Source: Bacilli bacterium (GTDB taxonomy: Bacteria > Bacillota_I > Bacilli_A > RFN20 > CAG-826). Taken from it: a DNA stretch of 64,000 nucleotides. A model generated the notes under the pieces. It searched no databases. It was not told the origin of the DNA and saw only the letters and a list, made by a program, of their open reading frames with translations. Shown piece after piece: positions 25,796 to 60,875 of this stretch (position 1 is its first letter; every line of letters begins with the position of its first letter). A program made the position numbers and the translations under genes. The stretch is taken from assembly GCA_045113315.1 (NCBI GenBank), contig JBGUIX010000014.1:3642-67641 (forward strand), in the 5' to 3' direction.

Positions 25796-25823
25796 AAAAC
25801 TTTGTAAAACTCCCTTATTTTTA

Positions 25824-28440: not shown

Positions 28441-28441
28441 T

Positions 28442-29695: not shown

Positions 29696-29703
29696 AACCC
29701 CTC

Positions 29704-30552: not shown

Positions 30553-31022
30553 TCTCCTCCTTTTTCAGCGACTTCAAGTACCGCTTTAACAATCGCATTA
30601 TAACCAGTACATCTACAAAGATTACCAGATAAAGCAATTCTTACTTCCTCTTCACTTGGATGAGGATTTTTCTTTAATAAGGCATAAGTATTTAGAATCA
30701 TACCTGGAGTGCAGAAACCACACTGGCTCGCTCCAAAGTCTGCAAACGCATCAGCGATACGACGATATTGTTTTGTGTTTCTAAATCCTTCAATGGTAAC
30801 GACATGTTTTCCGATAATATTAGCAACAGGTGTTAAGCATGAATCGTAGCAAACACCATCCACTAAAACGGAACAAGCACCACAAGCGCCTTCCCCACAT
30901 CCTTCTTTGACTCCTGTCATATGAAGGTGAATTCTTAATAAATCTAATAACCTCATTGAAGGGTCAACTTTAACAACAACTGGTTTATTATTGAGGTGAA
31001 ATTTAATGATCTTCATTTTCAA
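30546..31022 (-). CDS. Xanthine dehydrogenase family [2Fe-2S] subunit
   Basis: 158 aa; CGEGACGACSV plus C..C...CGFCTPG. Confidence 0.85.
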   Translation of the reverse strand: MKMKIIKFHLNNKPVVVKVDPSMRLLDLLRIHLHMTGVKEGCGEGACGACSVLVDGVCYDSCLTPVANIIGKHVVTIEGFRNTKQYRRIADAFADFGASQCGFCTPGMILNTYALLKKNPHPSEEEVRIALSGNLCRCTGYNAIVKAVLEVAEKGGEW

Positions 31023-33096: not shown

Positions 33097-33116
33097 GACA
33101 TTTTCCCCTTTCTAAA

Positions 33117-34235
33117 TTAATGTTTAAATTCAATAGCTTTCACTGGGCATCTAGATGCACATAATCCACATCTAAAACATTTTTCAGAATTAAATGTTGG
33201 GACTTTATTTTCATTCATTTCTATTGCGAAATATGGACAGTTTTTCATACATAAACCACAGTGAGAACATTTCTCCGCTTCAACGGACGGAAGTTCGGCT
33301 TCATATGTGGTCTCTTTCTTTAAACCAGTCTTGATAACATCTTCCACCGATTTAAATCCATATTTTTCTAATTCTTTTGGTAAATCATCGATAATCTTTT
33401 TATATAATTCTTTGCCTCTCAGCATTGGAGCGGATAACATTCCTACCGCAGAAGCTCCGGCTAATAAAAATTCAATGACATCTTTGGCGCTTGATACACC
33501 ACCAACACCGATAACAGTTAATGATGGTTCTGCTTGTTTAATGGTATAAACTGTGGCTAAAGCTAAAGGTTTAATAACTGGACCAGACATCCAAACAAAA
33601 CCTTTATCATTATTAGCTAACATTTTTCTTTTTTCGACATCGATAACCATGGATGGTCCTAATGAGTTAATAGCAACAACGCCATTAGCCCCATTTTCTT
33701 TAATCACTTTCGCAAATCCAGCAGGATCTGGAATGTGTGGAGATATCTTCATATAGAAAGGTTTTTTGGTGTGTTTTCTAATGGTTCGTACAACTTCTGC
33801 AAGCTTTTCGCGGTCTGTACCAACATAGTGACAGCTCACTTCAAAGGCATCCGCAAACTTATCTAATAGGGGGATTAAAACCTCCATATCTTCCTTTGTG
33901 TAACCAACAGAAATGATTAATGGAGTATCACCTTTTTTACTAACATATTCTGGTAAAAATTCTTCAATCCATTTCTCTTTGCTATATTCAGTCCAAAGTT
34001 CGCAGTTATAAATTGCATTATTATCACCGACGATGCATGGATGAGGAATATGCGCCATTTGGGTAGAGATAGTTTTAGCAACAATCGCACCACATCCAGC
34101 GACGTGATTGAGCCAGAGCATCTTCTCAGCGTCACCAACCAGTGGTCCAGCCGCAGGCATTAAAGGGTTTTTTAAATATAAACCGTCAAATTTGGTAGAT
34201 AGATCCATGATTAATCCTCCTTGATTCTTCTCCAA
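33117..34235 (-). CDS. Dihydroorotate/dihydropyrimidine dehydrogenase-like flavoprotein with two C-terminal 4Fe-4S ferredoxin motifs (PreA-like)
   Basis: 372 aa; DHOD TIM-barrel motifs; CSHCGLCMKNCP and CFRCGLCASRCP. Confidence 0.7.
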   Translation of the reverse strand: MEKNQGGLIMDLSTKFDGLYLKNPLMPAAGPLVGDAEKMLWLNHVAGCGAIVAKTISTQMAHIPHPCIVGDNNAIYNCELWTEYSKEKWIEEFLPEYVSKKGDTPLIISVGYTKEDMEVLIPLLDKFADAFEVSCHYVGTDREKLAEVVRTIRKHTKKPFYMKISPHIPDPAGFAKVIKENGANGVVAINSLGPSMVIDVEKRKMLANNDKGFVWMSGPVIKPLALATVYTIKQAEPSLTVIGVGGVSSAKDVIEFLLAGASAVGMLSAPMLRGKELYKKIIDDLPKELEKYGFKSVEDVIKTGLKKETTYEAELPSVEAEKCSHCGLCMKNCPYFAIEMNENKVPTFNSEKCFRCGLCASRCPVKAIEFKH

Positions 34236-35509
34236 AGGTCTTTACTAACTTCATTTGCTTCATCGAACAAACGATTAACTTTACGTGAAACAATTTTTCT
34301 ATTTTTTAATAACAATTTACCAGAAGCATAAACATCATTTGGTCTAAAGGATGGATATAATCCATAAAACACATGACCAAAAGCGTTACCACTATTCATT
34401 TCGGTAAACGGTTTATAAGGCACTAATAAGAAATCAGATTCATAATCTTTTTCTATTTTGCCTAGTTTAATCCCAAGCATCTTACTAACATAGTCATAGG
34501 AATTATTAATCATTTCTAAAACTTCACCTAATCCTAAGCCTAAAGGTGTCTTGTTATATAAGTGTGTCGTATATAAAACATTTAAATATTCAGTGGCCAT
34601 ATTGGATGATAAGCCATCATTACCCACTAAGACTTTAATGTTATGTTCTAAATAATTTCTGACATTTGGTATACCAACAGCGTTATTCATGTTACTTGTG
34701 GTGTTAACAACCATATAAGCACTATTCTTATGAACAATATCTAGTTCTTTATCGGAGATAGAAACACCATGAACGATTAAACTATTTGGATTTACTAAAC
34801 CAAATTTATCTAATCTTTCCATAATTGACATATGGTATTTAACGAAAGAATCATTCTCATCCATCTCGCTTTCCGCGACATGAATATGAATTGGATTATC
34901 GCCAAGTTTTCTAGCGACCGATTTTAGGGTTTTATCACTAAGAGTCATAGAGGCGTGCATACCAAATAAGCCTCTGACATGATCACTTTTAAATTTATCC
35001 ATGAAAGAGATGTTTTCTTTAATACATTTATCAACTGGATAACGATCACTAGTTTCAAAACATAACAAGGCTCTTAAACCTAAATCATCCACTAATGATT
35101 TTTTTAACATAGTTAATGACTTAATGATATCTGTTCCAGAAGCGTGGTGATCAATAATCGTTGTCACACCATTTTCGATAAACTCTTTACCGGCGCATAT
35201 ACCTGAATAATATGTGGTCTTGTTATCAATCTTGGCATCCATCTTCCACCACATCTGTTCAAGTATTTCTAGGAAGTTATGAGGATTAAATGGTAAGGCT
35301 AAGCCTCTAGCGAAAATGGAATAGATATGTGCGTGGTTACAAACAAAGTTCGGTAATAATAATTGACCGTTACCATCGATTACTTCATAACCATCATTTT
35401 TAAAGTCAGACATCTTGCCAACTTTTCTAATCTTTTCATCAAAAATGACAAAACCGTTTTCGATATAGTTCTTATAGTCATAAATACGGACATTGATAAT
35501 CGCTTTCAT
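34211..35509 (-). CDS. Amidohydrolase-superfamily aminohydrolase, SsnA-like
   Basis: 432 aa; metal-binding NHAHIYS (H.H) motif; typical SDMH-cluster partner. Confidence 0.6.
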   Translation of the reverse strand: MKAIINVRIYDYKNYIENGFVIFDEKIRKVGKMSDFKNDGYEVIDGNGQLLLPNFVCNHAHIYSIFARGLALPFNPHNFLEILEQMWWKMDAKIDNKTTYYSGICAGKEFIENGVTTIIDHHASGTDIIKSLTMLKKSLVDDLGLRALLCFETSDRYPVDKCIKENISFMDKFKSDHVRGLFGMHASMTLSDKTLKSVARKLGDNPIHIHVAESEMDENDSFVKYHMSIMERLDKFGLVNPNSLIVHGVSISDKELDIVHKNSAYMVVNTTSNMNNAVGIPNVRNYLEHNIKVLVGNDGLSSNMATEYLNVLYTTHLYNKTPLGLGLGEVLEMINNSYDYVSKMLGIKLGKIEKDYESDFLLVPYKPFTEMNSGNAFGHVFYGLYPSFRPNDVYASGKLLLKNRKIVSRKVNRLFDEANEVSKDLWRRIKED

Positions 35510-36822
35510 TAGAATTTGACCTCCTTGTCACAGTTAATTAATTCACCTTTACCACCTAAGAAAACTTCATCTTTTAAAATGAATTTTCCACGTAACATCG
35601 TATGAACAATTTTCTCTTTAACTTTGATACCTTCATAAACACTGTAGTCACATTTTCCATGTGGTTTACCAATTGGATATTCGTCTACTTCTTTGATAAA
35701 AGCTAAGTCAGCGTCTTTACCAACCGCTATACTTCCTTTTTTCGAAAAACCATTTAAAAGTGCGATATTTTTACTCATTTTGTCGATAATTTGATCTCCA
35801 AATTGTTTATGAAGGATTACAAATGAAGATTCAATACCACCGATACCTAATGGGTGTCCCACTAAAGAAGGATGATTCTTTTTATCGCTCGACATAAAGG
35901 AACAATGGTCAGTTCCAATCGTATTTACATAACTAATATTTTTAATTAATAATTCTTGTTCTTCCTTACTTCTAAGTGGAGGAGCAAATGTATATAAATA
36001 GCCTTTGTCCGTATTCAAAACTTCTTTATTAAATGTGAAGTATTGAGGGCAACTTTCCACAAAGAAATGTTTTCCTAAAATATCACCATATTGATTAATT
36101 AATCTTTGTAATGTTTCACCTGATGAACAGTGGACCATATATAAATAACCTTGAGTGTCTTTAGCAAAACCTGCGAGTTTAAGAGCTTCGCTGTATTCAC
36201 ATTCACTTCCTCTAGCTTCAGATATATATGTACATGCGTATTCAGGTTTTAAAGAAACGAGTTCATCGTTTTCAATATGCGCGGTAACTAGAAAATTATA
36301 TTTCTTTGTTAATTCTAATAATTTGATGATGTCAGGATCATAAGTACGACGTCTAGTTTCAGAATAAGTTGTAAATAGCTTAATTGTATTCATCCCTAAT
36401 TTCTTCATCATTAAAACATATTGTTCTAAATCACCATCAGGTTCTTTAATACAAGCGTGAAAATGATAATCAACATGTGAGTCTTTAGCGAGCTGTAAAC
36501 GGTCATAAAATGATCTTTCTAATTTTCTCGCATTTCTAGTTGGATCTAAAAAATCAATAATTGTGGTAATACCACCATAAGCGGCACATCTACTACCAGC
36601 CTCAAAATCATCAACAGATGTGATAGTGCCACAATAAAGAGCGAAATGAACATGTGGATCGATTAATCCTGGAATAATCTTTAAACCAGTCGCATCGATT
36701 ATTTCATCCGCAGTCTTTTCTTCTTTTCCGATATAAGCAAAATGTTCATCCTCTATAAGGATATTGACGTCTTGCCATTTATTATCGATATAGACTTTTC
36801 CGTTTTTGACTAATTTAGTCAT
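35509..36822 (-). CDS. Cyclic amidohydrolase (D-hydantoinase/dihydropyrimidinase/allantoinase family)
   Basis: 437 aa; DPHVHF metal-binding motif. Confidence 0.75.
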   Translation of the reverse strand: MTKLVKNGKVYIDNKWQDVNILIEDEHFAYIGKEEKTADEIIDATGLKIIPGLIDPHVHFALYCGTITSVDDFEAGSRCAAYGGITTIIDFLDPTRNARKLERSFYDRLQLAKDSHVDYHFHACIKEPDGDLEQYVLMMKKLGMNTIKLFTTYSETRRRTYDPDIIKLLELTKKYNFLVTAHIENDELVSLKPEYACTYISEARGSECEYSEALKLAGFAKDTQGYLYMVHCSSGETLQRLINQYGDILGKHFFVESCPQYFTFNKEVLNTDKGYLYTFAPPLRSKEEQELLIKNISYVNTIGTDHCSFMSSDKKNHPSLVGHPLGIGGIESSFVILHKQFGDQIIDKMSKNIALLNGFSKKGSIAVGKDADLAFIKEVDEYPIGKPHGKCDYSVYEGIKVKEKIVHTMLRGKFILKDEVFLGGKGELINCDKEVKF

Positions 36823-39140
36823 TATTTCCCCTCTTTTTCTTTCATCGCTTTAAGAATCTTTTCTGGTGTGATTGGTAAGGAATTAATTCTGACTCCAACA
36901 GCGTTATAGATCGCGTTACATAAAACCGCGGGAGGAGTATCGATACCAATTTCACCGACAGATTTCGCACCAAATGGACCAGTTGGTTCATAAGAATCAG
37001 CGAATTCAGTTGTTAAATGTTTAATAGTTTTACATGTTGGAACATGGTAATAGAGGAAACTATTTGTTAATAGCTGTCCTTTTGAGTTATAGATAACTTC
37101 TTCCGTAGAAGCCATACCAAAGCCTTGGGTAATACCACCTTCGACTTGGCCTTTAGCTAACATTGGATTAATGGTGGTACCACAATCCACTACTGAGACA
37201 TAATCTAACACTTCATATTCACCTGTTTCTGTATCAACTTCCACTTCTGCATAAGCAGCCATAAATGGAGGTGGAGAAACATGTCCAATATATGATTCAG
37301 TAACCGCTACTTGATGTTGTGGAGCGGAATATATTAATTTATTTGATAAATCAAATAATGAAATTTCTTTATTACCAGCTTTAAAGGTTTTACCATCAAA
37401 GATAATATCTTTTTCTTTTACTTCTAACATGGTAGCCGCTTCACTAATGAGTCTTTCTCTCATCTTAATCGCCGTCTTCCATGCCGCATTACCAGAGATA
37501 TATGTTGTGGAAGAAGCATAAGCACCAACATCGAATGGAGCTAAGTCAGTATCAGAAGAATAGATAATTACTTTATCCACTGTGGTCATTAATTCTTCAG
37601 CAACAATTTGGCTGATTAAAGTATCAGAACCTTGTCCGATATCTGTCGCACCACATCTCACCATATAGAAGCCACCATCTTGTAAGGTAATCGCACAACT
37701 ACCCATATCAGAGAATGGAATACCACTACCTTGCATAGCAATCGCGCATCCTACGGATCTCACTTTGTGAGGCCCAACTTGTTTTCTTGGATATTTCTCT
37801 TTCCAACCGATTAGTTCTGCACCTCTATCAATACAATATGGAAGTTTACAAGATTCCATAATCATCGCTGTACCTTTGGTACCTTCGCCCATGATTTCAA
37901 AGATTGGGGAAGTTTCTTTTTCTTTCATGGAATTCTTTTTACGAAGTTCCACTGGATCCATATGTAACTTTTCAGCGAGCATATCGATCGCAGATTCTAA
38001 AACATAGTTACCTTGAATCGCACCATAACCTCTATAGGCACCCGCAGGTACGTGATTAGTGTATAAAACTCTACCACCAAATCTCACCGCTTTAACTTTG
38101 TTATATAAAGGTAAAACTTTGCTACCCACAATCATAAAGACTGTTAAAGCGTGTTCACCATAAGCACCTGTATCACTTAATGCGTGACAATCAATAGCTC
38201 TAATCGTGCCATCTTTATCCGCACCAATTTTCATAGAGATATACATCGGGTGACGTGTATATGAAGAAGCAAACACTTCTTCTCTGGTATAAATCATCGA
38301 TGATGGTAATCCAGTTCTTAATGTCACTAAAGCGACAAACATTTCACCATGGAATTGTTGTTTACCACCAAAGCCACCGCCAACACGTGGTTTAACGATT
38401 CTAATTTGTGATAATGGCATACCTAAGGTTTGAGCCATAATTCTTCTCACATGGAATGGAGTTTGAGTGGATGAATAAATGACTAAACGATTGTGTTCAT
38501 CAAGTCTTGCGTTACATGTATGTGGTTCAAGCATCGCATGCGCTTGGGCTTGTGTTTCCGCAGCGTGTTCAATAACGACATCACATTTTGCTAATTCTTT
38601 TTCAACATCGCCAACTTCCATTTCATAACTAGCGGCGACATTATCTTTTGGTCTAAAGCCCATTTCAAAGGCTTGAGAAATGCCTTCTTCTGGGTGAATA
38701 ACATTCTTACTCTTATATGCTGTTTTATAATCTAAAACTGGCTCTAATACTTCGTATTCCACTTCAATTAATTTCAAAGCATCTTCTGCGATTTGTTCAT
38801 TAATTGCCGCAACGCATGCCACTTCATCACCGACAAATCTCACATATTCATCTAAAATGAATTTATCAATTGGAGATGGTTGTGGAGCACCTTGTCCAGC
38901 ACGAGAGAAGGCCACATGTGGAACGTTTTTATATGTTAAAACGCATTTCACACCATTAAGGGCTTCCGCTTTCGAAGTATCAATTTTTTTGATTCTAGCA
39001 AAAGCATGTGGAGAACGTAACATCTTTAAGACTAATGAACCTGGGACTTCATAATCTTGGGTGTAGACCGCTCTACCCATCATCTCAGCTTGTCCACAAA
39101 CGGAATGGGTTTTGTTATTAACAACTTTAAATTTTTTCAT
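36822..39140 (-). CDS. Xanthine dehydrogenase family molybdopterin-binding subunit (enzyme 2)
   Basis: 772 aa; MoCo-binding domains (GGGFGGK). Confidence 0.85.
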   Translation of the reverse strand: MKKFKVVNNKTHSVCGQAEMMGRAVYTQDYEVPGSLVLKMLRSPHAFARIKKIDTSKAEALNGVKCVLTYKNVPHVAFSRAGQGAPQPSPIDKFILDEYVRFVGDEVACVAAINEQIAEDALKLIEVEYEVLEPVLDYKTAYKSKNVIHPEEGISQAFEMGFRPKDNVAASYEMEVGDVEKELAKCDVVIEHAAETQAQAHAMLEPHTCNARLDEHNRLVIYSSTQTPFHVRRIMAQTLGMPLSQIRIVKPRVGGGFGGKQQFHGEMFVALVTLRTGLPSSMIYTREEVFASSYTRHPMYISMKIGADKDGTIRAIDCHALSDTGAYGEHALTVFMIVGSKVLPLYNKVKAVRFGGRVLYTNHVPAGAYRGYGAIQGNYVLESAIDMLAEKLHMDPVELRKKNSMKEKETSPIFEIMGEGTKGTAMIMESCKLPYCIDRGAELIGWKEKYPRKQVGPHKVRSVGCAIAMQGSGIPFSDMGSCAITLQDGGFYMVRCGATDIGQGSDTLISQIVAEELMTTVDKVIIYSSDTDLAPFDVGAYASSTTYISGNAAWKTAIKMRERLISEAATMLEVKEKDIIFDGKTFKAGNKEISLFDLSNKLIYSAPQHQVAVTESYIGHVSPPPFMAAYAEVEVDTETGEYEVLDYVSVVDCGTTINPMLAKGQVEGGITQGFGMASTEEVIYNSKGQLLTNSFLYYHVPTCKTIKHLTTEFADSYEPTGPFGAKSVGEIGIDTPPAVLCNAIYNAVGVRINSLPITPEKILKAMKEKEGK

Positions 39141-39141
39141 A

Positions 39142-39594
39142 TTATTTACCCTCCGCTAAATAGGCTTTAATAGCCTTGAACTGAGAATGATATCCAGTAC
39201 ATCTACAAATATTACCCACCATAAAGTCTCTTATTTGTTCATCAGTGGGGTTTTTATATTCTTTCTTTAAAGCATGGATAATAATGGCCATACCAGAACC
39301 ACAGTAGGAGCATTGATTAGCGCCTTCTTCACCGAAGAAATGAGAAATTCTCGCCACTTCTTCTTGAATTCCTTCAACTGTAGTGACATGTTTACCGTTA
39401 ACACTAATTGCTAAAACGGAGCAGGAAAGGACTGGCTTTTCATCCACTAAAACTGTACAGCTTCCACAGATAGACTCATCGCATCCCACTCTAATTGAAA
39501 AGATGCCATGTCTTCTAAGAGCGTTAGAGAGATATTCGTCTGGTCTTACATCCCAAACGACTTCAGTACCATTTAAGAAAAATTGTAATTTCAT
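39142..39594 (-). CDS. Xanthine dehydrogenase family [2Fe-2S] subunit (enzyme 2)
   Basis: 150 aa; two 2Fe-2S Cys clusters. Confidence 0.85.
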   Translation of the reverse strand: MKLQFFLNGTEVVWDVRPDEYLSNALRRHGIFSIRVGCDESICGSCTVLVDEKPVLSCSVLAISVNGKHVTTVEGIQEEVARISHFFGEEGANQCSYCGSGMAIIIHALKKEYKNPTDEQIRDFMVGNICRCTGYHSQFKAIKAYLAEGK

Positions 39595-40376
39595 TATTTA
39601 TTAACCTCCTCTAAGCCTCTTAAAACATAGACTTTAACTAAGTCTTGTCTATATGCTTTGCTAATATTGTTACTATCTAAATAAGATAATTCTTCCGAAG
39701 CTAATTTCGCGGCTTCTTTAAATTCGCCTTTATCTGCCTCTTCCATCGCTTTTCTGGCTAAGGAGGCGACTAATGGACGAGAGCCAACGGCAATATAATG
39801 TTTATTATTTCTTTTAGAAATAGAGATGTTAACCATTGGAAAATCTAAAGAAGTGGCTTTCACTTTATGGAAATATCCTTTGCCTTCTTCTTTTTTGATA
39901 ACGATTTCCGTTAAGATACCATCAACCTTGCCTTTGATATTTAAGAATTCTTCTAAAGAATAAGATTGTTCTGGATATAATTTCACAGTGACATCAAGCG
40001 GTAATAAGCTAGCGATAACATCGGAGAAAGGGAATCTACCAAAGATAGAACCACCTATTGTCGCGGTGTTTCTAAAAGCAGGACCCACTACTTCACTAAC
40101 ACCAAATGAAGTTGCTCCTCCATTTAGTTTCTTGGTTTCTGGATTAGTTTCAAAATCTCTTAGTGTCACTAATGCGCCAACATGGATTTCATCTTTACTG
40201 ACTTTAATTTCATCAAGATGAAGTTCACTTAAATCAATTAGTGTTTCATAAGATAATCCAGTTTTCTTCATCCATAATCCACCAGCGATAATCGCGTTTT
40301 TAGGATTATCTTTTAGTTTTTGGTAAGCATCATCTAATGACGTTGCTTTGTAATAGTTGTTTACTCTTAGACTCAT
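39594..40376 (-). CDS. Xanthine dehydrogenase family FAD-binding subunit (enzyme 2)
   Basis: 260 aa; CO-DH flavoprotein-like AIIAGG motif. Confidence 0.75.
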   Translation of the reverse strand: MSLRVNNYYKATSLDDAYQKLKDNPKNAIIAGGLWMKKTGLSYETLIDLSELHLDEIKVSKDEIHVGALVTLRDFETNPETKKLNGGATSFGVSEVVGPAFRNTATIGGSIFGRFPFSDVIASLLPLDVTVKLYPEQSYSLEEFLNIKGKVDGILTEIVIKKEEGKGYFHKVKATSLDFPMVNISISKRNNKHYIAVGSRPLVASLARKAMEEADKGEFKEAAKLASEELSYLDSNNISKAYRQDLVKVYVLRGLEEVNK

Positions 40377-40378
40377 AA

Positions 40379-40939
40379 CTATTTCCTTTCTTCTTTTATT
40401 TTTAGATACTCACTTAATGTATCGATATCTCTTAAGATGTTTTCATCATCCACTTCAATGGATTCTTTGTCTTGTTTATCCCGAAAGATTTTTAAGTTAG
40501 ATTCCTTATCTTCTTTTAGAAGAGATTCTTTTAAATCTTTAGATATAAATAAGGGATGGCCATCTTTTCCTTTATAAGTGGGGTATCTCACTTTTTTAGA
40601 ACCATTTAATAGAGCCATAAATGTTTCTTTTTTTATAAAAGGGATATCACCTGGAAGAATGAAAAAATCTTCCTTTACTTCCTTTACTCCTTTTAAGACA
40701 CTAGAAAACATCCCATCGGGATAGTTCTCATTAAAAACGATTTTGATAGTAGCGTCTTCATTTAAAAAGGATCTGATATCCTGATCATAGTGACCAGTCA
40801 CTACGATAATCTTACTAACGAAAGGTTTGATTGAATCGATTGTTTTTAGTAGTAGCGGTTTATCTTTGATAATTAGATGCATTTTATTTTCACGCATCCT
40901 TGATGAAAAACCTCCTGCTAGAACAATCGCTTCCGCCAT
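40379..40939 (-). CDS. MobA-like nucleotidyltransferase; likely molybdenum cofactor cytidylyltransferase (MocA-like)
   Basis: 186 aa; LAGGFSSRM nucleotide-binding motif; adjacent to the MCD-dependent molybdoenzymes. Confidence 0.65.
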   Translation of the reverse strand: MAEAIVLAGGFSSRMRENKMHLIIKDKPLLLKTIDSIKPFVSKIIVVTGHYDQDIRSFLNEDATIKIVFNENYPDGMFSSVLKGVKEVKEDFFILPGDIPFIKKETFMALLNGSKKVRYPTYKGKDGHPLFISKDLKESLLKEDKESNLKIFRDKQDKESIEVDDENILRDIDTLSEYLKIKEERK

Positions 40940-41076: not shown

Positions 41077-42099
41077 ATGAAAGTACTTCTCTATTTTGAA
41101 AAAGAAGAAAAAATTAAAAAGTCAGGTATCGGAAGAGCTCTTAGACATCAAATTGCCGCGTTAACTTCCGCAGGTATTGAGTATACCCTAGATCCAAAAG
41201 ATACCTATGATATCGCTCATGTGAATACATATTTTCCAGCGAGCAAAAGATTAGTTAAAAAATTAAAGAAAAAACACATCCCTGTTATCGTCCATGGTCA
41301 TAGCACAAAAGAAGATTTCATGAATTCTTTTAGATTATGGAAATTAATGAAACTTTGGTTTTATCCAAATTTGATGTGGTTTTATAAAAACGCTGATTTC
41401 ATCATTACTCCTACTTTATATTCCAAGAATTTAATTGATTCTTATAATTTAGGAACTGAAGTAATTTATGTTTCTAATGGTATATCACCAGAAGAATATG
41501 CTTATGATGAAAAAAAGATTAATGAATTTAAAGAATTCTTCCACATTAAAGAGGGAGAAAAAGTAGTCATTGGTATTGGCTTCCCATTCAATAGAAAAGG
41601 AATTAAAGATTTCTTCGCTGTCGCTAAAGAAAGACCAAATGTCAAATTCATCTGGTTTGGTTTCTTACAAAGAATATTAACTCAACCAAATGTTTTAAAA
41701 GCGATTAAGAATAGACCAAATAATGTCATCATGCCTGGATATATTGATAACGCCATTATTAAAGGGGCATTAAGATACGCTGAATGTTTATTCTTCCCAA
41801 GTTATGAAGAAACAGAAGGCATTGTTGTTTTAGAAGCCCTAGCTAGTAACTGCCCAGTCTTAATTAGAGACATTGGCGTGTACGCTGATTGGTTAGAAGA
41901 TGGCCGTGATTGTTATAAGGGAAAGAACAATGAAGAGTTCCTAGAAAAACTAGATAAAATCATGACTTCCGATAATTCAAAAATGGTCGCAAATGGTTAT
42001 AAGTTAGTGGAAGAAAGAACACTAGAAAAAGTGGGTCAAGAACTCAAAGTGGCTTATACCAATTTATTAGAAAAATTTAACAAAAAACCTGCAAAATAG
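41077..42099 (+). CDS. GT4-family glycosyltransferase
   Basis: 340 aa; EETEGIVVLEALA (E-x7-E) motif. Confidence 0.8.
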   Translation: MKVLLYFEKEEKIKKSGIGRALRHQIAALTSAGIEYTLDPKDTYDIAHVNTYFPASKRLVKKLKKKHIPVIVHGHSTKEDFMNSFRLWKLMKLWFYPNLMWFYKNADFIITPTLYSKNLIDSYNLGTEVIYVSNGISPEEYAYDEKKINEFKEFFHIKEGEKVVIGIGFPFNRKGIKDFFAVAKERPNVKFIWFGFLQRILTQPNVLKAIKNRPNNVIMPGYIDNAIIKGALRYAECLFFPSYEETEGIVVLEALASNCPVLIRDIGVYADWLEDGRDCYKGKNNEEFLEKLDKIMTSDNSKMVANGYKLVEERTLEKVGQELKVAYTNLLEKFNKKPAK

Positions 42100-49712: not shown

Positions 49713-49810
49713 TTGTAATACCTCGTTTTTAATTATACAAAAGTTTTTCCTTTTATATTGATAATTAATTAATTGGCTTATGTGTATAACAATACAAATT
49801 TATTTGTTTA

Positions 49811-49819
49811 TGTTATAAT
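49811..49819 (+). promoter_or_regulatory. Extended -10 promoter element TGtTATAAT upstream of tldD
   Basis: ttgtttaTGtTATAATtcaaagg, ~20 nt upstream of the AGGAGG RBS. Confidence 0.4.
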
Positions 49820-49847
49820 TCAAAGGCAAAAAAGAAGGAGGACAGTT

Positions 49848-51248
49848 ATGGTTAGTAAGAAATTAGCTATTGATGTTCTAAACGCCGCTTTAGAAACTGG
49901 AGCTGATTATGCTGAAATCTTTTATGAGGATTCACGTAGTTATAGCTTAAGTATTGAAAACGGCAAAGTTCAAACATCTTCATCAAATGTTATGAATGGT
50001 GTTGGTTTGAGATTATTAAAAGAAAATCAAACTGTATATGGATATACAAATGATTTAACAAGAAAAGGATTACTCGCTTTAGCGGAGTCATTACGTTCAT
50101 CTTTTAAAGGTAAAAGAATTATCACTGTTACCAAACTCGATATGATTCGCGCTAAAAATAGAAACCCAGTTAAAAATAGTTATGAAAATATCTCTAGAGA
50201 AGAAAAAATTGCCTTAGTTAAAGAAGGTATCGAAGAGATTGAAAAATTAAAAGATCCTAGAATCGTGAGATATATCGGAAGTTTTGCTGATAATCATCGT
50301 TTTGTGGCTGTTTTTAATTCAAAAGGAATATGGTTCAAACGTGATTCTGAATTCGGAAGATTAGCCTATAGCATTATTGCCGCTGATCAAAATGGTTTTG
50401 AAACAGCATTCGAAGGTCCAGGTGCTCAACAAGATATTTCCTACTTCAGATCAGTCGTAAATGTGAGAGAAGTAGCGAAAAAGGCTGCAAAAACCGCCTT
50501 ATTAATGCTAGAAGCGAAAGAATGCCCAAGTGGAAAAATGCCAGTTGTTATCGGTAACGGTTGGGGGGGCGTTTTGTTCCATGAAGCTTGTGGACACCCT
50601 TTAGAAGCTAGCGCTATTTCTAGAGGTTTATCTTGCTTTAATGGTAAAGAAGGCGACTATATTGCTTCTCCACTTGTCAGCGCTGTCGATGATAGCACCA
50701 TCCCACAAGGTTGGGGCTCTATTGATATCGATGATGAAGGTAACTTAGGTACCAAACGTTTATTAATTAAAGATGGTAAATTAGTCAATTACATGATTGA
50801 TGACTTTAACGGTAGAAGAATGAACCGTGAAGGTAATGGTGCTTGCCGTAGACAAAACTATAAATATTGTCCTACATCTCGTATGTCTAACACATACATT
50901 TGTAATGGTAAAAGTACACCGGAAGAAATTATCGCTGCTACAAAATTAGGTTTATATGCGGTTGGTTTCTCAGGCGGAAGTGTTGACCCCACTACCGGCG
51001 AATTTAACTTTGGTTGTTCAGAAGCTTATATCATCCGTGATGGTAAGATCTGTGAACCAGTTAAAGGTGCGACATTAATTGGCCATGGAGATGAAATCTT
51101 AAAACATATCGATATGGTTGGTAATGATTTAGCTTTAGGCCAAGGTATGTGTGGTGCTGCATCTGGTTCAATTAGAACTAATGTTGGTCAACCAACTTTA
51201 AGAATTAGCGAAATCACTGTTGGTGGTCACGGAGGAGAACTTAAATAA
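49848..51248 (+). CDS. tldD: TldD-family metalloprotease
   Basis: HEACGH motif; start set at ATG 49848 behind AGGAGG (the ORF track starts earlier). Confidence 0.85.
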   Translation: MVSKKLAIDVLNAALETGADYAEIFYEDSRSYSLSIENGKVQTSSSNVMNGVGLRLLKENQTVYGYTNDLTRKGLLALAESLRSSFKGKRIITVTKLDMIRAKNRNPVKNSYENISREEKIALVKEGIEEIEKLKDPRIVRYIGSFADNHRFVAVFNSKGIWFKRDSEFGRLAYSIIAADQNGFETAFEGPGAQQDISYFRSVVNVREVAKKAAKTALLMLEAKECPSGKMPVVIGNGWGGVLFHEACGHPLEASAISRGLSCFNGKEGDYIASPLVSAVDDSTIPQGWGSIDIDDEGNLGTKRLLIKDGKLVNYMIDDFNGRRMNREGNGACRRQNYKYCPTSRMSNTYICNGKSTPEEIIAATKLGLYAVGFSGGSVDPTTGEFNFGCSEAYIIRDGKICEPVKGATLIGHGDEILKHIDMVGNDLALGQGMCGAASGSIRTNVGQPTLRISEITVGGHGGELK

Positions 51249-52572: not shown

Positions 52573-53850
52573 ATGAGAAAGATATTTAAAAACATTGTTT
52601 TATTATCAGGATTAATGGCTTTATCAGTTGCAGGCGCCTCTGCTTTAGCTATTAAAAGTCTAAATAATGAAGCTTTTGTGGCGGAAGCCGCTCAACACAA
52701 AGAAGCTTTCGACCCTTATGTTTATACAGGTTCATATTATGCGGATGGCAATATTACAGTTGATGATACTGGTGATTCTTTACGTAGTAAATTGACCAGT
52801 TATATTAACCCTCCAAAAGTTCCTGAATATAGTGGTAAAGGTTCTGGTTCTTTAGCGGAATACTGTCAACAAGCTGATGAAGATCCTACTAATAAATCCA
52901 ACATGATTTATCTATATACTAGAAATTCATTAGCGAAGAATCCTGCTAATTCATGGAATAGAGAACACGTTTGGCCAAAATCATTATCTAATGGTAACTG
53001 GGGCGAAGGACGTGCAGGTGCGGACTTATTGCATTTAAGACCGACATATCCAGCCACCAATAGTACAAGAAGCAATATTCCTTTTGGTAATGTCACAAAT
53101 GGTACCGAAAGAACTTATGAAGGAATGACATATGCTTGGACAGGCGGTGGATACTTTATGCCACTACCATCAGTTAGAGGTGATGTCGCTAGAATTATCA
53201 TGTATGTTTGGACAGCTTATTATGATGAATATGCATCAAGAAGGCCGCAAATCCTCTCTGTTTTCCAAAGTTATGACACTTTAATGCAGTGGCACATTGA
53301 AGATCAACCAGATGAAATGGAAGGCCATAGAAACGATATTGCGCAAGGCACATTCCAGAAGAATAGAAACCCATTTGTCGACCATCCAGATATAGCGTGG
53401 AAGATTTTTGGTAATCAATGCTCGAGCACAATGTTATCAAGAGCAATGTCAACTTACCCTGCTGATTGGAATCAATCTCCAGTCGCTAAAAAGATTTATC
53501 TAAGCGCCAATGAATTAACAGTGAATGTTGGTCAAGTTAGTAAATTACTCGCCAACGTACCTGCTACTTGGTCAATAAGTAAGAAGGCAAACGCCACATT
53601 AGAAGTTTCTAATGATAAAACCGCTATTAATATTACTGGTAAAAGAATCGGAGAAACCACTATTACAGCCAAAGATGAAAATGGTAATACCGCCACTTGT
53701 AAATTAACAGTTATCCCAGGAAGAAATGGCGAAACTGGTGAAGATGAAAATCTTAAGTGGATTATCCCTTTAGCAATTATCGTTGGTGTATTCATAATTG
53801 CGGGTGTAGTAGTTACTATTGTCTTAGTTTCAAAAAGAAAGAAAAAATAA
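52573..53850 (+). CDS. Extracellular Endonuclease-I-family nuclease with C-terminal Ig-like domain and TM anchor (paralog 1)
   Basis: 425 aa; signal peptide; Endonuclease I motifs NREHVWPKS and NRNPFVDHP; Big_3-like segment; C-terminal hydrophobic anchor followed by KRKKK. Confidence 0.8.
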   Translation: MRKIFKNIVLLSGLMALSVAGASALAIKSLNNEAFVAEAAQHKEAFDPYVYTGSYYADGNITVDDTGDSLRSKLTSYINPPKVPEYSGKGSGSLAEYCQQADEDPTNKSNMIYLYTRNSLAKNPANSWNREHVWPKSLSNGNWGEGRAGADLLHLRPTYPATNSTRSNIPFGNVTNGTERTYEGMTYAWTGGGYFMPLPSVRGDVARIIMYVWTAYYDEYASRRPQILSVFQSYDTLMQWHIEDQPDEMEGHRNDIAQGTFQKNRNPFVDHPDIAWKIFGNQCSSTMLSRAMSTYPADWNQSPVAKKIYLSANELTVNVGQVSKLLANVPATWSISKKANATLEVSNDKTAINITGKRIGETTITAKDENGNTATCKLTVIPGRNGETGEDENLKWIIPLAIIVGVFIIAGVVVTIVLVSKRKKK

Positions 53851-53950: not shown

Positions 53951-56900
53951 ATGAATCCTAAAAACAAACACCGTATTATTCTAGCAGCAGGACTTGCTGC
54001 CACAGCTCTTTCTTTATGTGCTTTATCTTCATTACATAAAGAATACAAACAAGTTAAAGCAGTTGATATTAACGACTATACAGAATGTGATAAAAAGCAC
54101 CAGGCTAATAATGCCTCTGGCTTAATGGAAGAATTAGAAAAAATAACCGCACCAGGTTCATCTGGTTCTTATGATGAGTTATGGACCTCTTATGAAAAAG
54201 CTTATAAAAGGGCAGACGGAAAAATATTCGATTATTATTCAAGCATCACAAATTACACCCCTGCAAATCAGTGTGGAGGCTGTGATCATGAAGGTGCCTG
54301 TTATAACAGGGAACACTCGATTCCTAAATCTTGGTGGGGTGGATCAAAAAGTAACCAAGGATCGGATCCTTTTATTGTGGTTCCTACCGATGGTTATGTT
54401 AATAACGCAAGAAGCAACTTCCCGTTTGGTTATGTTGGATCCGTCTCGAAGCCCTTTTCTAATTCGAAACTCGGAACTGTGGCTTCTGGTTGGGGCATTA
54501 GTGGCACAGTATTTGAGCCTGACGATTCTTTAAAAGGTGATTTCGCAAGAATCTACTACTATACAACTGTTAAATATAATGTATCTAGTTGGACTAGTGG
54601 TGATGGATCGAAATGCTATTCCGGAAATGAAAGCACAAATTTCGGATTAACAAATTACTCAGTTAAACTATTTTCTGAATGGAGCGAACTAGATCCTGTT
54701 AGTGAATGGGAAGAGAGTGTTAATGATAAATTAGCTAGTATCCAAGGCAATAGAAATCCGTTTATCGATCATCCTGAGTACGCTAATACACTTTGGGGAA
54801 CGAATTCTAATTACACACAATATACACACGCTTCTTCATCTAATTGGGTGAAGATATCCTCTACATCAGAAAGTATGTCAGTAGGTGGCGTTACAACTCT
54901 TTCAGCAACTTCTAGTGACGGTTCAAATATTTCTTGGTCTAGCTCTAGTCCAACAATTGTTGAAATTGGTGCATCTCCCACAGCAAGCGGAACTCCTATT
55001 ACATTAACCGCTAAAGCGGCTGGTTCTGCTACTATTACAGCTTCCGCAACTATTGATGGAAGCACTTACTCCAAACAATGTTTAGTTGTTGTCACAAAAG
55101 CATTAAAATCATTAACTTATACAGGCACTCCTACTAAGACTACATATAATTCTGGTGATTCTTTTAATCCTAATGGATTAACAGTCACCGCTACATATAC
55201 TGATACGACATCTGAAAATGTCACAAGTCATGTGGTATGGACACCAAATCCATTAACTGCAAATATAACATCCGTCACAGGTACATATGGTGGACTAACT
55301 GTCACCGTTTCAGGATTAACAGTCAATCAAGCAAGTTCGATGTCGATTATTAATACTGATGTGCCTAATGGTAGTTATCCAAAAACACCAACAGATTTTA
55401 CAGCTGCTTCAGGTTTAAAATTTAAAGGCTATTATACCGGTAATTACGAAAGCTCAATTCAATTTAAATCCGGCCAAGGTTATCTCTATAATACCGAGGC
55501 TCTCCCTCTTTCTTCCCTCACAATAAATGTCAAATCAGGCAGTTTTACTGTTTACGGTGGTAAAGCCGAAAACCCATCCACTGTTATAACAGGAACTAAT
55601 AATACGTATAATCTAAACTCATATTCATATTTTAAAGTTGCTAATACAAGTAGCAGTGTTGCTAGAGCCAATTCAATTGAAGTTACCTTAGGAAGTTCTG
55701 AGGTATCTAAACTATCAAGCATCACTCTTAGCGATATACAAGAAGACTATTATGTTGGTGATTCCTTTGTTAAACCAATAGTCACCGCTCACTATGAAGA
55801 TGGCGGAAACGATGTAGTTACTTTAAAAGCCGAGTTCTCTGGCTATAATATGTCTTCAATCGGTGTTCAAACTGTCGAAGTTAGTTACACCGAAGGTGGC
55901 GTAACAGCTGAAGCTGATTTTGATATCGAAGTTAAAGCAAAACCAACTTTATCTTCACTAGAATTAACTGGCGATCCATTAACTACAACTTATTACCATG
56001 GTGATGTATTCTTAAGTGCTGGTTTAACTGTAACTGCTCATTATAGTGATAACACTAGCGATGACGTCACAAAAGATGTTGTCTGGACACCAAACCCATT
56101 AACATATGGCATTACTTCAGTCACAGGTACATATGAAGGTGAAACAGTTGTCGTTAATGGTTTAACTGTTAATAAATTATTACCAGTTTCTTTATCCACT
56201 ACCGGTCAAACCACTTCCTATACAGTGGGAGATTCATTCTCATATGACGGTACATGTAAAGTTACTTATAACAAAGGAACAACTAAAACTGTTACACCAA
56301 CAGTAGATTCTTCTTTAGTCAATATGTCTAAAGCGGGAACTTATAGTGTTTCTCTTTCATATACTGAAAACGAAACAACTGTTTCTACTTCTTATAACAT
56401 TACTGTTAGTGACAAACCATTTGTTAACACAATTAAAGAATGTTATAACAAATCTTCTGGAGCATCAGTAAGCCATGTGTATGGTTTATATGTTGGTTTA
56501 TTTAAGAATAATTCAAAAACCACAAGCACAATGATTATGAATGGCGAATATGGAATTATGCTTTATGGCTCAGTTCCTGATAATGCTTGGGTTGAAAATG
56601 AAACATATATCGATGTCACATCCGGAACTTTAGATATTTATAACAATCTATATCAAATTAAAAGTTGTGCTGTTAGCACTGAAGAGCAAGAAAAAATTAA
56701 ACCTAATGTGGCTCCGGTTAGTGTTTATACAGTAACAGGTGAAGAAAGCTCAGCTGATTTAACTGTGGCTAATAGATTAACTATCTTAAGTGGAACAATT
56801 ACAGTTAATAGTTGGACTGAAGGAAAAGATAGCAACATTACAGTTAATGGAACCACAATATTTATTAAAGGTGTTTCCGCTACTGCAGAATTAAAATCAA

Positions 56901-57424
56901 AATTAGATTCATATGGAACAACCAAACCAGCAACATTCAAATGTTTTACAGGTTTTTATAAGACAAACTTCCAAGTGCAATTTAAAGAATTAATGGAAGA
57001 AGATCCAGGTATTACCGCGGAATCATTCTCTTCTAAATTATTAGAATTAACTAATCCAATCTGTTCTTCTTCTGGAGAAAAAGAATCATCTTTATCTAGT
57101 GTTTGGATTAATTTACAAACTAATTATTGGGCAAAGATGAGTGATTCTCATAAACAGACATTAATTAATTCTGGTAAGAGTGAAACAGGTACTCCTATCG
57201 AAAAAGCGATGGCTAGATACGATAGAATATGTCAAAAATATAAATCCTGTACCAATTTTATTGGTAGACCAGGAGCGGAATACGCAAAAACGAATCTATT
57301 AATTAATATTAACACTAATGCGATGATGATCATTTTAATCTCCATCGGAGTGGCAGGTATTTCTGCATTAAGTTTATATATGTTTCTCACTCACAAGAAG
57401 AAAAAAACATCTAATGTAAAATAA
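53951..57424 (+). CDS. Large surface protein: N-terminal Endonuclease-I domain plus multiple Big_3 Ig-like domains plus C-terminal TM anchor (paralog 2)
   Basis: 1157 aa; NREHSIPKSWWGG and NRNPFIDHPEYA; at least four Big_3-type repeats; C-terminal TM followed by KKKK. Confidence 0.75.
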   Translation: MNPKNKHRIILAAGLAATALSLCALSSLHKEYKQVKAVDINDYTECDKKHQANNASGLMEELEKITAPGSSGSYDELWTSYEKAYKRADGKIFDYYSSITNYTPANQCGGCDHEGACYNREHSIPKSWWGGSKSNQGSDPFIVVPTDGYVNNARSNFPFGYVGSVSKPFSNSKLGTVASGWGISGTVFEPDDSLKGDFARIYYYTTVKYNVSSWTSGDGSKCYSGNESTNFGLTNYSVKLFSEWSELDPVSEWEESVNDKLASIQGNRNPFIDHPEYANTLWGTNSNYTQYTHASSSNWVKISSTSESMSVGGVTTLSATSSDGSNISWSSSSPTIVEIGASPTASGTPITLTAKAAGSATITASATIDGSTYSKQCLVVVTKALKSLTYTGTPTKTTYNSGDSFNPNGLTVTATYTDTTSENVTSHVVWTPNPLTANITSVTGTYGGLTVTVSGLTVNQASSMSIINTDVPNGSYPKTPTDFTAASGLKFKGYYTGNYESSIQFKSGQGYLYNTEALPLSSLTINVKSGSFTVYGGKAENPSTVITGTNNTYNLNSYSYFKVANTSSSVARANSIEVTLGSSEVSKLSSITLSDIQEDYYVGDSFVKPIVTAHYEDGGNDVVTLKAEFSGYNMSSIGVQTVEVSYTEGGVTAEADFDIEVKAKPTLSSLELTGDPLTTTYYHGDVFLSAGLTVTAHYSDNTSDDVTKDVVWTPNPLTYGITSVTGTYEGETVVVNGLTVNKLLPVSLSTTGQTTSYTVGDSFSYDGTCKVTYNKGTTKTVTPTVDSSLVNMSKAGTYSVSLSYTENETTVSTSYNITVSDKPFVNTIKECYNKSSGASVSHVYGLYVGLFKNNSKTTSTMIMNGEYGIMLYGSVPDNAWVENETYIDVTSGTLDIYNNLYQIKSCAVSTEEQEKIKPNVAPVSVYTVTGEESSADLTVANRLTILSGTITVNSWTEGKDSNITVNGTTIFIKGVSATAELKSKLDSYGTTKPATFKCFTGFYKTNFQVQFKELMEEDPGITAESFSSKLLELTNPICSSSGEKESSLSSVWINLQTNYWAKMSDSHKQTLINSGKSETGTPIEKAMARYDRICQKYKSCTNFIGRPGAEYAKTNLLININTNAMMIILISIGVAGISALSLYMFLTHKKKKTSNVK

Positions 57425-57469: not shown

Positions 57470-60303
57470 ATGAAAAAATCATTAAGCTTAATTAAATTTT
57501 TAGGCGCCGGCTTCTTAAGCCTCGGCGCTATTTCCATATCTGCGGCAGCAATGAATCATACTTTTTCCAAAAACCAAAATGAAGTTGATGCAACAAGTGT
57601 GGACACTTATTATTCCACTGTTAGTGGTGATAAAAAAACAATCAACAAGGCACGTATAATTCTTTATTAGAAAGCATTAACACCAAAATAACTAATGGGA
57701 TTTCTTACACAGCTTATGACAATCTCAAAACCGCTTATGCAAAGACTTACGTTAGAAGTGATGGTTACACCTATGACATTTATTCCGATGTAACACAATA
57801 TACAGCTGGATCTGCTCATACAAGTTCAAGTAGTTATGTCGGTGGTGGTTACAATAAAGAACATACCATCCCACAATCATATTGGGGAAAAAGTACTAGC
57901 CAACAAGGGTGTGATTTATTTATTGTTCTTCCTTCAGATACATATGTGAACGGAAAGCGTTCAAATTATCCATACGGCATTACTTCTTCCGGAACATCAT
58001 ATCGTGGTTCTGGCGATCCAACAGGAAATAGATTGGGAACAACCACCAACACTAGTTATGTAAAAAGTGGCACTGTTTTCGAGCCTTTTGAATCAAGAAA
58101 GGGCGATCTTGCAAGAATATATTTCTACGCAGTAGCGATGTATTTAAAAAATGGGGCTCAAAATGGGGCCGTTAAAAACTGGACTGGCGGCGGAGAAGTT
58201 GATGGAAGCAAAACCATCTTCGGTTCCGGTACAGGATACAAAAGTTTTATCTATTCAAATTATTTAAATATGTTACTTGATTGGCATAAAAACGATCCTG
58301 TTTCTGCTGATGAGATTAAATTTAACAACGCTATTGAAGGCGTTCAAAAGAATAGAAATCCATTTATCGATCATCCATCATGGGTAGATATTATTTGGGG
58401 TGGAACATACGGCGCAAGCCAACAAAATGGTGAAGACACATCAAACGGTAATGCTGTTGTTGTGAACGGCCAAATTGAAGGTACAACACCATCTACAGAT
58501 CCAACAATTACAATTAATCCAACTTCTTTAACATTAACTGAAGGTGGAAGCACTGGAACAATTACTGCCACAGTTGCTAATGGTTCTGGAAATGTAACAT
58601 GGGAAAGCTCAGATACAGATGTTGTTACTGTTTCTAGTAGTGGCACAAATCAAACTACATGTACAGTTACTCCTGTAGCAGCGGGAACCACTACTATTAC
58701 AGCATCTTATTCCACTGCCACACCTGTTACGTGCTCTGTTACCGTTAATTCTTCCGGTGGAGGTGGAGATGACCCTGAAGTTGAATCAGAAATATTAGAT
58801 TTCACTGCTCAAAGCTATTCCGACCAAGAAGTTGTAGAAAGTTTATCAGGAACATATAGTTCTGTATCTTTAGATAAAGGCACAGGGAACAATGACCCAA
58901 AGTATTTTTCAAACGGAACTTCTGTTCGTTGCTATGGAGGAAACACTTTCACCGTTTCTAGTTCCACAAAAACAATAAAAAAGATTGAATTAACATTTGG
59001 AAGTAGTGACGGATCAAACGCCATAACCACAGATGTTGGAACATATAGTAGCGGAACTTGGACAGGAAGCGCTTCTTCAATTACATTTACAATCGGTGGA
59101 ACTTCAGGAAATAGAAGAATCCAAAAAATAACTGTTTATTACGAATCATCAACACCAACTCCAACACCAGTCATATCATTAAATAAATCATCTGATGAAA
59201 TTTCTGTTGGAGACGATACCTCATTGACGGCCACAGCTTCAGGTGGAACAGGAAACATTACATGGTCTATTAGTGAAGGAGATGAAGGCGTTGTTTCTTT
59301 AAGCTCTACAACAGGTACAACAATCACTATAACTGGTGAAAGCGAAGGTACGGCCACAATTACAGCCACTTATAGTGGAGTTTCAGCAACTTGTGAAATA
59401 ACAGTATCATCATCTGTTGATCCAGTAGTTTCGGGCGATTACACAATGACATTAGATTCAAGCGTGAGCGGCCAAAAAAATGTTCACTGGACATCAGCAT
59501 CTCAAGCATCTCTAGAATACGATAATGTTACATGGTCAACTTCTATAACTGGTACCACTTCAATCACTACTCAAACAGAATATGCTCAAATTGGATCAAA
59601 AAACAACCCAGCAACGAAAATTACTATTTCTACTACTGCATTTGCAGGTATGAAAATTACTAGCGCCTCATTAACTGGCTATTGTATGAGTAATACCGGC
59701 CCAACTATAACTATTACAGCTGGATCGACAACGATGCTAAATGCGCAAAGTCTAGTTAAGAACGAATCAACAGTTTATGAAACAACATCAGATCCAGTAA
59801 TTTTACCAGCTAACGGTGTGTTAACATTTACTATTAATTCTTCAGCTAAAGCTGGAATAGCAATTAGTGAAATAGTTGTCAATTACGTCGATATTCAAGA
59901 CGTTGCGGAAAAATATGCTAAATCATTTATGGAGTCTGGCATATGCGGTACTAACGACAAAACACCGGCCAGCGCTTCAATTTGGAATAGCATGAACCAA
60001 GCTTTCCAAGATATTGATGAAGACGCTCAAGATATTTTAACAGAGGGTATTGCTAATCCTTCTGACACCAAATACTTAGGCAAATGTTTGGCTAGATATG
60101 ATCGAATTCTTTATTTACATGGTAAAGATACAACTCACTTCCCAGACTTCATGCATCGTAATGATGAAAACGGAGCAAACCAAGTTCGTGGATTGATAAC
60201 AAACAAATCTAACACTACATTAATATTAATAATGATTAGCATCACATCCACGATGATCGGATTCATATTCGTTGGTTATTATTTAAAGAAGAAAGAGAGA
60301 TAA
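57470..60303 (+). pseudogene. Endonuclease-I + Ig-like surface protein paralog 3, interrupted by a -1/+2 frameshift at an A7 tract (57632..57638)
   Basis: Signal peptide ORF 57470..57670 ends YYSTVSGDKKTINKARIILY*. The frame from 57634 continues NNQQGTYNSLLESINTK...NKEHTIPQSYWGK...NRNPFIDHP... through to 60303. One extra A (A8) would give a continuous EndA-like N-terminus (…GDKKNNQQGTYNSLLESI…). Confidence 0.6.
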
Positions 60304-60404
60304 GTTAATAAGCTTATCTTTTTTTCAAAAAACTCTAATAATTAGTATCCTTATTATTTATAATATATACGTTCCTTTTGAAGGTTGGACACTTAAGGAG
60401 AAGT

Positions 60405-60875
60405 ATGAAAACATTAATTATGCTTAGTGCTGTCCCAGCAGCCGGTAAAACAACCTGGGCTAAAAAATATCAAGCTGAACATCAAAATGTCTACATCATC
60501 AATAGTGATGAAGTAAGACTAGAAATAACTCATGGAGATTATCAGGATCATTCCCATCAAAAAGAAGTTTGGGAATTATTTGAAAGACGCATTCATGAAT
60601 ACGCGAATAAAGGTGATGATGTCACCGTTATATTAGATGCTTTAAATGATGTTAATGAGGTGAGATATAAATATTTAAGCACCACTCCTGAATACGATAA
60701 AAAGATATTAGTCTTATTCCCGACATCATTAGAAAAATCATTACATTATAATGGTGAAAGGGTGTGGCCTAATAAAGTACCGGATGATATCCTTGTGGGG
60801 TTAGTTCATAAATTTGAACAACCAAATGAAAAAGTTCTATCACTTGTAGATGAAGTTATTACTATTAAATGGTAA
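60405..60875 (+). CDS. P-loop kinase-like ATP-binding protein (AAA_33 / polynucleotide-kinase or zeta-toxin-like fold)
   Basis: Walker A SAVPAAGKTTWA; start set at ATG 60405 behind AAGGAGA. Confidence 0.5.
   Translation: MKTLIMLSAVPAAGKTTWAKKYQAEHQNVYIINSDEVRLEITHGDYQDHSHQKEVWELFERRIHEYANKGDDVTVILDALNDVNEVRYKYLSTTPEYDKKILVLFPTSLEKSLHYNGERVWPNKVPDDILVGLVHKFEQPNEKVLSLVDEVITIKW

Follow-up and report, generated by a model that had tools for sequence, protein, structure and literature searches.

Three genes for Endonuclease_1 proteins lie in tandem in the stretch of Bacilli DNA analysed here (64,000 nucleotides; hereafter the window), and the third of them is broken between two reading frames at a run of seven adenines. 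The break raises the question of whether the third nuclease is switched on and off by changes in the length of this run, has been inactivated by mutation, is rescued during expression, or is intact and was only misread. The sequence-only reading had favoured slipped-strand phase variation as a candidate, with a pseudogene or a sequencing error as alternatives. The locus is built as follows.

52573..53850, + strand: paralog 1, intact, a 425-aa Endonuclease_1 protein.
53951..57424, + strand: paralog 2, intact, an 1157-aa Endonuclease_1 and Big_3 surface protein with a C-terminal transmembrane anchor.
57470..57670, + strand: 5′ fragment of nuclease gene 3, a 66-aa ORF with start codon ATG at 57470, a signal-peptide-like N-terminus and a premature TAA at 57668..57670.
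57632..57638, + strand: the A7 run and site of the lesion, in codons 55-57 of gene 3 (window 57630..57639 reads ataaaaaaac).
57634..60303, + strand: 3′ reading frame of gene 3, 889 codons covering Endonuclease_1, Big_2, further β-rich modules, a C-terminal helical region and a transmembrane anchor.
57946..60303, + strand: the sole 3′-frame ORF of gene 3 that has a start codon, a GTG; its product is 785 aa long (P0001).

Gene 3 begins 45 nt after the end of paralog 2. The positions of the run and of the two ORFs in different frames had been called correctly from the sequence. The 66-aa ORF starts with the signal-peptide-like segment MKKSLSLIKFLGAGFLSLGAISISAAA, which is followed by 28 native residues ending in ...YYSTVSGDKK; its translation reads MKKSLSLIKFLGAGFLSLGAISISAAAMNH...SGDKK and continues with 10 out-of-frame residues (TINKARIILY) up to the stop. 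At the lesion the window reads ...GTT AGT GGT GAT AAA AAA ACA ATC.... The 3′ frame runs one base behind the 5′ frame. It is closed by TGA TAA at 57628..57633 and is open from 57634 to the stop at 60303, where the transmembrane anchor ends in YYLKKKER, and no second stop or indel was found in the 889 downstream codons. Insertion of one A at the A7 yields an uninterrupted protein of 944 aa with the junction ...YYSTVSGDKKNNQQGTYNSLLESINTK..., exactly as had been noted; the peptide across the junction is ...VSGDKKNNQQGTYN..., and the junction peptide is also given as DKKNNQQ. Two further A7 runs lie nearby, at 57401..57407 in the 3′ end of paralog 2 and at 59474..59480 within gene 3, and both are in frame, as is a more distant A7 at 41510..41516.

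The repaired 944-aa protein matched Pfam Endonuclease_1 (PF04231) over residues 68-303 with an E value of 5.6e-48 and a score of 164.2 bits (cut-off 25), covering profile positions 11-234 of 235; Big_2 was also matched. In a tblastn search, residues 31-413 of the repaired protein aligned to paralog 2 (54029..55045) with 37% identity, and a weaker match to paralog 1 was obtained over 52954..53745. The junction is located at residue 56, and the homology to paralog 2 therefore crosses it. These searches confirm three tandem Endonuclease_1 genes in the window, and the earlier assignment of gene 3 as a third nuclease paralog whose junction aligns with the intact copies holds. Judged by its profile match, the repaired product would be a member of the Endonuclease I family. 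It resembles the extracellular and surface nucleases of this family in matching the whole profile and in keeping the NKEHTIPQS motif region, but is far longer than a typical endonuclease I and differs also in its Ig-like modules, its C-terminal transmembrane anchor and its three tandem paralogs.

What the broken gene could still express is limited by the lack of start codons. No ATG, GTG or TTG occurs in the 104 codons past the junction in the 3′ frame, which rules out an internal start as a means of rescuing the enzyme. The earliest start, the GTG at 57946, falls downstream of both the signal peptide and the GGYNKEHTIPQS motif (~57841..57879), and the NKEHTIPQS motif likewise sits before it. 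No secreted active nuclease is therefore expected from the 3′ frame.

The ancestral state of the site was approached with the repaired protein as the query of a homology search, which retrieved the truncated 785-aa product (P0001, 100% identity) together with intact full-length relatives. The nearest of these are P0003 (98% identity, N-terminal 46%) and P0002 (88% over 48%). The DNA of the contigs coding for them, L004 and L005, respectively, was aligned to the window. Both read GGT GAT/AAT AAA AAC AAC AAT CAA at the site, encoding (D/N)KNNNQ, so that the adenines form A5-C-A2. The window reads GGT GAT AAA AA-A ACA ATC AA; the C that parts A5 from A2 is missing, and belongs between the bases corresponding to 57636 and 57637. 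The lost C is the only indel in the first 1290 nt of gene 3 when the three sequences are compared. Their identities over this region are as follows.

Window against L004, first 1290 nt of gene 3: 97.3% identity.
Window against L005, first 1290 nt of gene 3: 90.0% identity.
L004 against L005, first 1290 nt of gene 3: 89.4% identity.

The pairwise identities place L005 as an outgroup, and A5-C-A2 is therefore the ancestral, in-frame state. From this alignment, the A7 appears to have been made by the inactivating deletion of the C, which would have fused A5 and A2, and not to descend from an older A8 that slipped. The frameshift coincides with the A7 because deleting the interrupting C itself creates the A7. 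The homopolymer would then be a consequence of the lesion in gene 3, not its cause. A two-step route, in which a C>A change gave A8 and one A was then lost, is conceivable and needs an extra event and an unsampled intermediate.

Comparison with other isolates had been suggested as a check on phase variation. In none of the 15 loci sampled from other strains is gene 3 interrupted; its products have 919, 986, 1037, 1039 or 1054 aa, or the frame runs to the contig end, and no recurrent inactivation was seen in these 15 loci. In 13 of them (L008-L020) the gene has a different nuclease-domain allele, class B, that lacks an A run at the corresponding position, and the more distant relatives P0004 and P0006 have SGSSANSSSG at the lesion site. 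Wider searches added little to this sample. A pattern consisting of the exact flanks and a tract of any length found no match in the genome contig collection and none in the metagenome contig collection. Protein-guided scans returned only distant Endonuclease I genes (30-38% identity) from the genome contigs and only distant relatives from the metagenome contigs. A scan with the 157-aa N-terminus gave one distant match, and the word index gave 48 candidates only.

A sequencing or assembly error, by which the true gene would be intact and the missing base a homopolymer artefact, has to be weighed: the DNA comes from a metagenome-assembled genome, and no assembly artefact is commoner than a single-base error in a homopolymer. 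Three separately assembled Logan contigs (runs SRR25030129, SRR25030104 and SRR25030088) nevertheless match the window at 100% identity over 7.1-8.4 kb, all with A7. The 785-aa product is recorded on 11 contigs (12 were read in the contig look-up) and the frameshift-specific 66-aa product (P0121) on 11; these contigs may stem from related samples within one project and stand for a single clone. The 944-aa product was found in neither its A8-repaired nor its +C-repaired form among about 15 billion protein sequences. The absent base, moreover, is a C and not an A from a pre-existing run. An A7 is nothing unusual in the window, which contains 24 A/T runs of at least 7 bases; 17 of them are other sense-strand A7/A8 runs that lie in frame within intact ORFs (A8 at 8259 and 16 A7 runs), and no other split gene was found among its about 52 densely packed genes. 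This census of runs and the dense, unbroken gene packing rule out systematic homopolymer errors. The lesion thus appears real, an artefact being very improbable, and the agreement of independent assemblies disfavours the sequencing error that had been offered as an alternative. Equally improbable is programmed recoding, in which ribosomes slipping by −1 on A AAA AAA, or an A added by RNA polymerase, would yield the full-length nuclease. To pass from the 5′ to the 3′ frame, the ribosome would indeed have to shift by −1, or the mRNA to gain an A, precisely on an A run read by tRNA-Lys, and transcriptional slippage that rescues poly(A) frameshifts at a low level is documented in bacteria (PMC1088944). 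However, the orthologs are unshifted, so nothing is conserved that could be programmed, and no stimulatory RNA structure is present in the 82 nt downstream (MFE −6.5 kcal/mol, z −0.24, no better than shuffles). The missing downstream structure and the missing conservation are the grounds for rejecting −1 ribosomal frameshifting. A7 runs are also common in intact genes of the window, and the run, at 7, is shorter than the roughly 9 A/T at which many genomes begin to show selection against slippage (PMC1088944). At most, some trace leakiness may occur.

Slipped-strand phase variation, the stochastic toggling of the third surface nuclease between A7 (OFF) and A8 (ON), deserves closer attention. 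The A7 occupies codons 55-57, near the 5′ end of the coding sequence of a surface-protein gene; known switches such as vaa have exactly this configuration (PMC524362), which speaks against a simple pseudogene. One added A gives the 944-aa protein, and the downstream frame is wholly intact, so that a reversion would restore a working gene. The vaa gene of M. hominis is ON with A8 and OFF with A7 or A9, and it switches at 1e-3 to 1e-4 (PMC524362). Gene 3 resembles vaa in being a surface-protein gene with a short 5′ coding poly-A in which A8 is in frame and A7 out of frame, and in having a 3′ part made of mosaic modules, like the exchangeable mosaic cassettes of vaa (PMC524362). Tract lengths also drift in the lineage, some strains having T6 in place of the intergenic T7 at 60319. 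Against this, the vaa tract is conserved and switches, whereas the relatives of gene 3 have A5-C-A2 (L004 and L005) or no tract at all (class-B L008-L020, P0004 and P0006); the A7 is therefore not a conserved, selected feature. No ON form of the window allele has been sampled: 11 contigs were found for each of the two truncated products, and none for the A8 product. Only A7 was recorded and no variation in tract length was seen at the consensus level, at which a minority A8 would stay hidden. The 17 other A7/A8 runs of the window are all in frame, which also counts against a switch. The rates at the Bacilli benchmark, Listeria inlA, are mutation-like and not switch-like (PMC2831843). Finally, the stop codons of the window genes are TAA (32), TAG (13) and TGA (5); TGA is used as a stop, and the organism therefore follows code 11 and is no classical code-4 mycoplasma, a further point against the switch. 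Taken together, an A7/A8 switch at gene 3 is unlikely, though distinctly less so than recoding or an artefact, and the absence of an A8 state from the intact alleles and of length heterogeneity runs counter to the mechanism first proposed. A variant is that the deletion of the C gave birth to a slippage-prone A7 that now toggles between A7 and A8, if the lineage lacks mismatch repair like its wall-less relatives. This is still less probable than the switch in general; if true, the mosaic surface nuclease would be a vaa-like phase-variable antigen, and the locus a contingency locus caught at its origin.

Gene 3 is probably a recent, strain-specific frameshift pseudogene of a redundant mosaic surface nuclease, produced by the deletion of one base. 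A single C has been lost within ...GAT AAA AAC AAC AAT..., which merged A5 and A2 into A7 and shifted the frame. Translation from the ATG at 57470 would stop after 66 codons, and the remaining 889 codons would be left without a usable start before the catalytic region. This copy would supply no secreted nuclease, while both upstream paralogs stay intact. The pseudogene that had been named as an alternative is thus the reading that the one-base loss relative to intact orthologs and the lack of a rescuing start bear out. The comparisons show the lesion and its polarity, its confinement to this strain, its recent date and its agreement across assemblies. The protein of gene 3 is presumably not produced, and the loss may be tolerated through redundancy or may have been selected for, with a surface antigen or receptor as the target.

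The inactivation can be placed in time by codon comparison. Over the first 430 codons, the window and L004 differ at 28 codons synonymously and at 4 non-synonymously; together with the absence of a second lesion, this ratio indicates that the inactivation is recent. The gene appears, from these codon differences, to have been functional and under purifying selection until recently. For a fixed pseudogene, the sequence-only reading had expected uniform A7 together with further inactivating lesions downstream. At the consensus level, the three fetched contigs do have only A7; neither further lesions nor relaxed selection was detected in gene 3, which fits a very recent event, does not discriminate between the readings and gives no argument for switching. 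Reversion of the A7 to A8 is possible, although no sign of it was found.

Two known situations resemble that of gene 3. In Listeria monocytogenes inlA, also a surface-protein gene of the Bacilli, an interrupted A run in some lineages stands against a pure run in others (PMC2831843). The pure run mutates from A6 to A7 at about 5.5e-7 and from A7 to A6 at about 3.9e-8, and the interrupted A2GA4 at below 3e-10; lineages with the interrupted run are stable, and pure-run lineages occur naturally as frameshifted, truncated alleles (PMC2831843). As at gene 3, the outcome is a natural loss-of-function polymorphism and not rapid switching. The two genes differ in that the pure A7 of inlA is in frame and its A6 broken, whereas the pure A7 of gene 3 is the broken form and was born by deleting the interrupting base. 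The other parallel is with ordinary single-nucleotide-deletion pseudogenes (frame transitions by indel mutation), which gene 3 matches in being confined to one strain, in having intact orthologs and a redundant paralog family, and in carrying no recoding signal. It is set apart from them by its very young age: there is no second lesion, and past purifying selection is still visible. The strain-specific loss of one hypervariable, redundant surface-protein allele is ordinary gene-content turnover. For annotation, gene 3 is best entered as a frameshifted pseudogene in this strain, neither as a 785-aa protein nor as an assembly error to be 'corrected'. As a more general caution, finding a homopolymer at a frameshift is no proof of slippage, since deletion of an interrupting base manufactures a homopolymer.

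Different parts of the window allele of gene 3 have different closest relatives.

Residues 1-436: closest to the L004 allele, 98%.
Residues about 335-570: closest to the 919-aa allele of L008, about 90%.
Residues 631-944: closest to the C-terminal half of P0004, 63%.
Last 34 residues: the transmembrane anchor, conserved in L004, L009 and P0006 (65-88%).

The surroundings of the gene follow yet another pattern. The 5 kb upstream of gene 3 are 98.5% identical to L020, with no indels relative to this closest backbone, and only 84.8% identical to L004. The nuclease domain of the window, in contrast, is 98% identical to L004 at the amino-acid level, against about 46% for L020, which carries the other nuclease-domain class. 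That the backbone is closest to L020 and the nuclease domain to L004 implies that lineages have exchanged the nuclease-domain module. Gene 3 is thus a mosaic, hypervariable and fast-evolving surface-protein gene; its alleles range from 919 to 1054 aa and have different blocks in common. The metagenome contigs L013, L014, L015 and L017 (gene 3 at 10520.. or 7843..) stop 390-401 codons into the gene, where the alleles diverge; contig ends at this place are consistent with co-existing strains whose different 3′ modules break the assembly.

The immediate surroundings were also scanned for regulatory signals. Between 52400 and 61000, promoter-like sequences were counted at the level of shuffles, and 9 terminator-like sites were detected (about 4 expected), none bearing on gene 3. 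An AT-rich palindrome overlaps the stop codon of gene 3 and precedes the T7 at 60319..60325, which is T6 in L008 and L011, an ordinary homopolymer length polymorphism or drift. The next gene downstream, 60378..60875, encodes a KTI12/AAA_33-like kinase whose called length differs between near-identical assemblies, 165 aa (TTG start) against 156 aa; its start codon is therefore uncertain.

The wider locus, with three tandem surface nucleases of which the third is mosaic and exchanged, is of more interest than the frameshift as a view of nucleic-acid scavenging in uncultured gut Bacilli. A large cluster on the − strand (24785..40939) resembles anaerobic purine or ureide catabolism. It also contains PLP enzymes, and the following members.

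36822..39140 and 31003..33096, − strand: two xanthine-dehydrogenase-like molybdopterin subunits.
35509..36822, − strand: a hydantoinase/allantoinase-like amidohydrolase.
25824..27062, − strand: an M20 amidohydrolase.
24785..25795, − strand: a carbamoyltransferase.

Together, the purine- or ureide-like cluster and the nucleases suggest a nucleic-acid-degrading lifestyle. The gene at 6728..8545 (+ strand, 605 aa) has weak, below-cut-off similarity to the cell-surface 5′-nucleotidase and 2′,3′-cyclic phosphodiesterase families; going by this similarity, its product would act downstream of the surface nucleases. The gene at 20463..23414 (− strand) encodes a 983-aa protein that begins like a lipoprotein (...LAGLTLSAC) and matched nothing in Pfam or NCBIfam. 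A segment of this protein, SYYVGDTFVKPTVTAHY..., closely resembles an Ig-like module of nuclease paralog 2, DYYVGDSFVKPIVTAHY..., and surface proteins of this region therefore share modules. Elsewhere in the window, a G7 run at 50563..50569, unusual at 35% GC, is in frame within a TldD-like gene (49773..51248), where it encodes part of ...GNGWGGVLFHEACGH....
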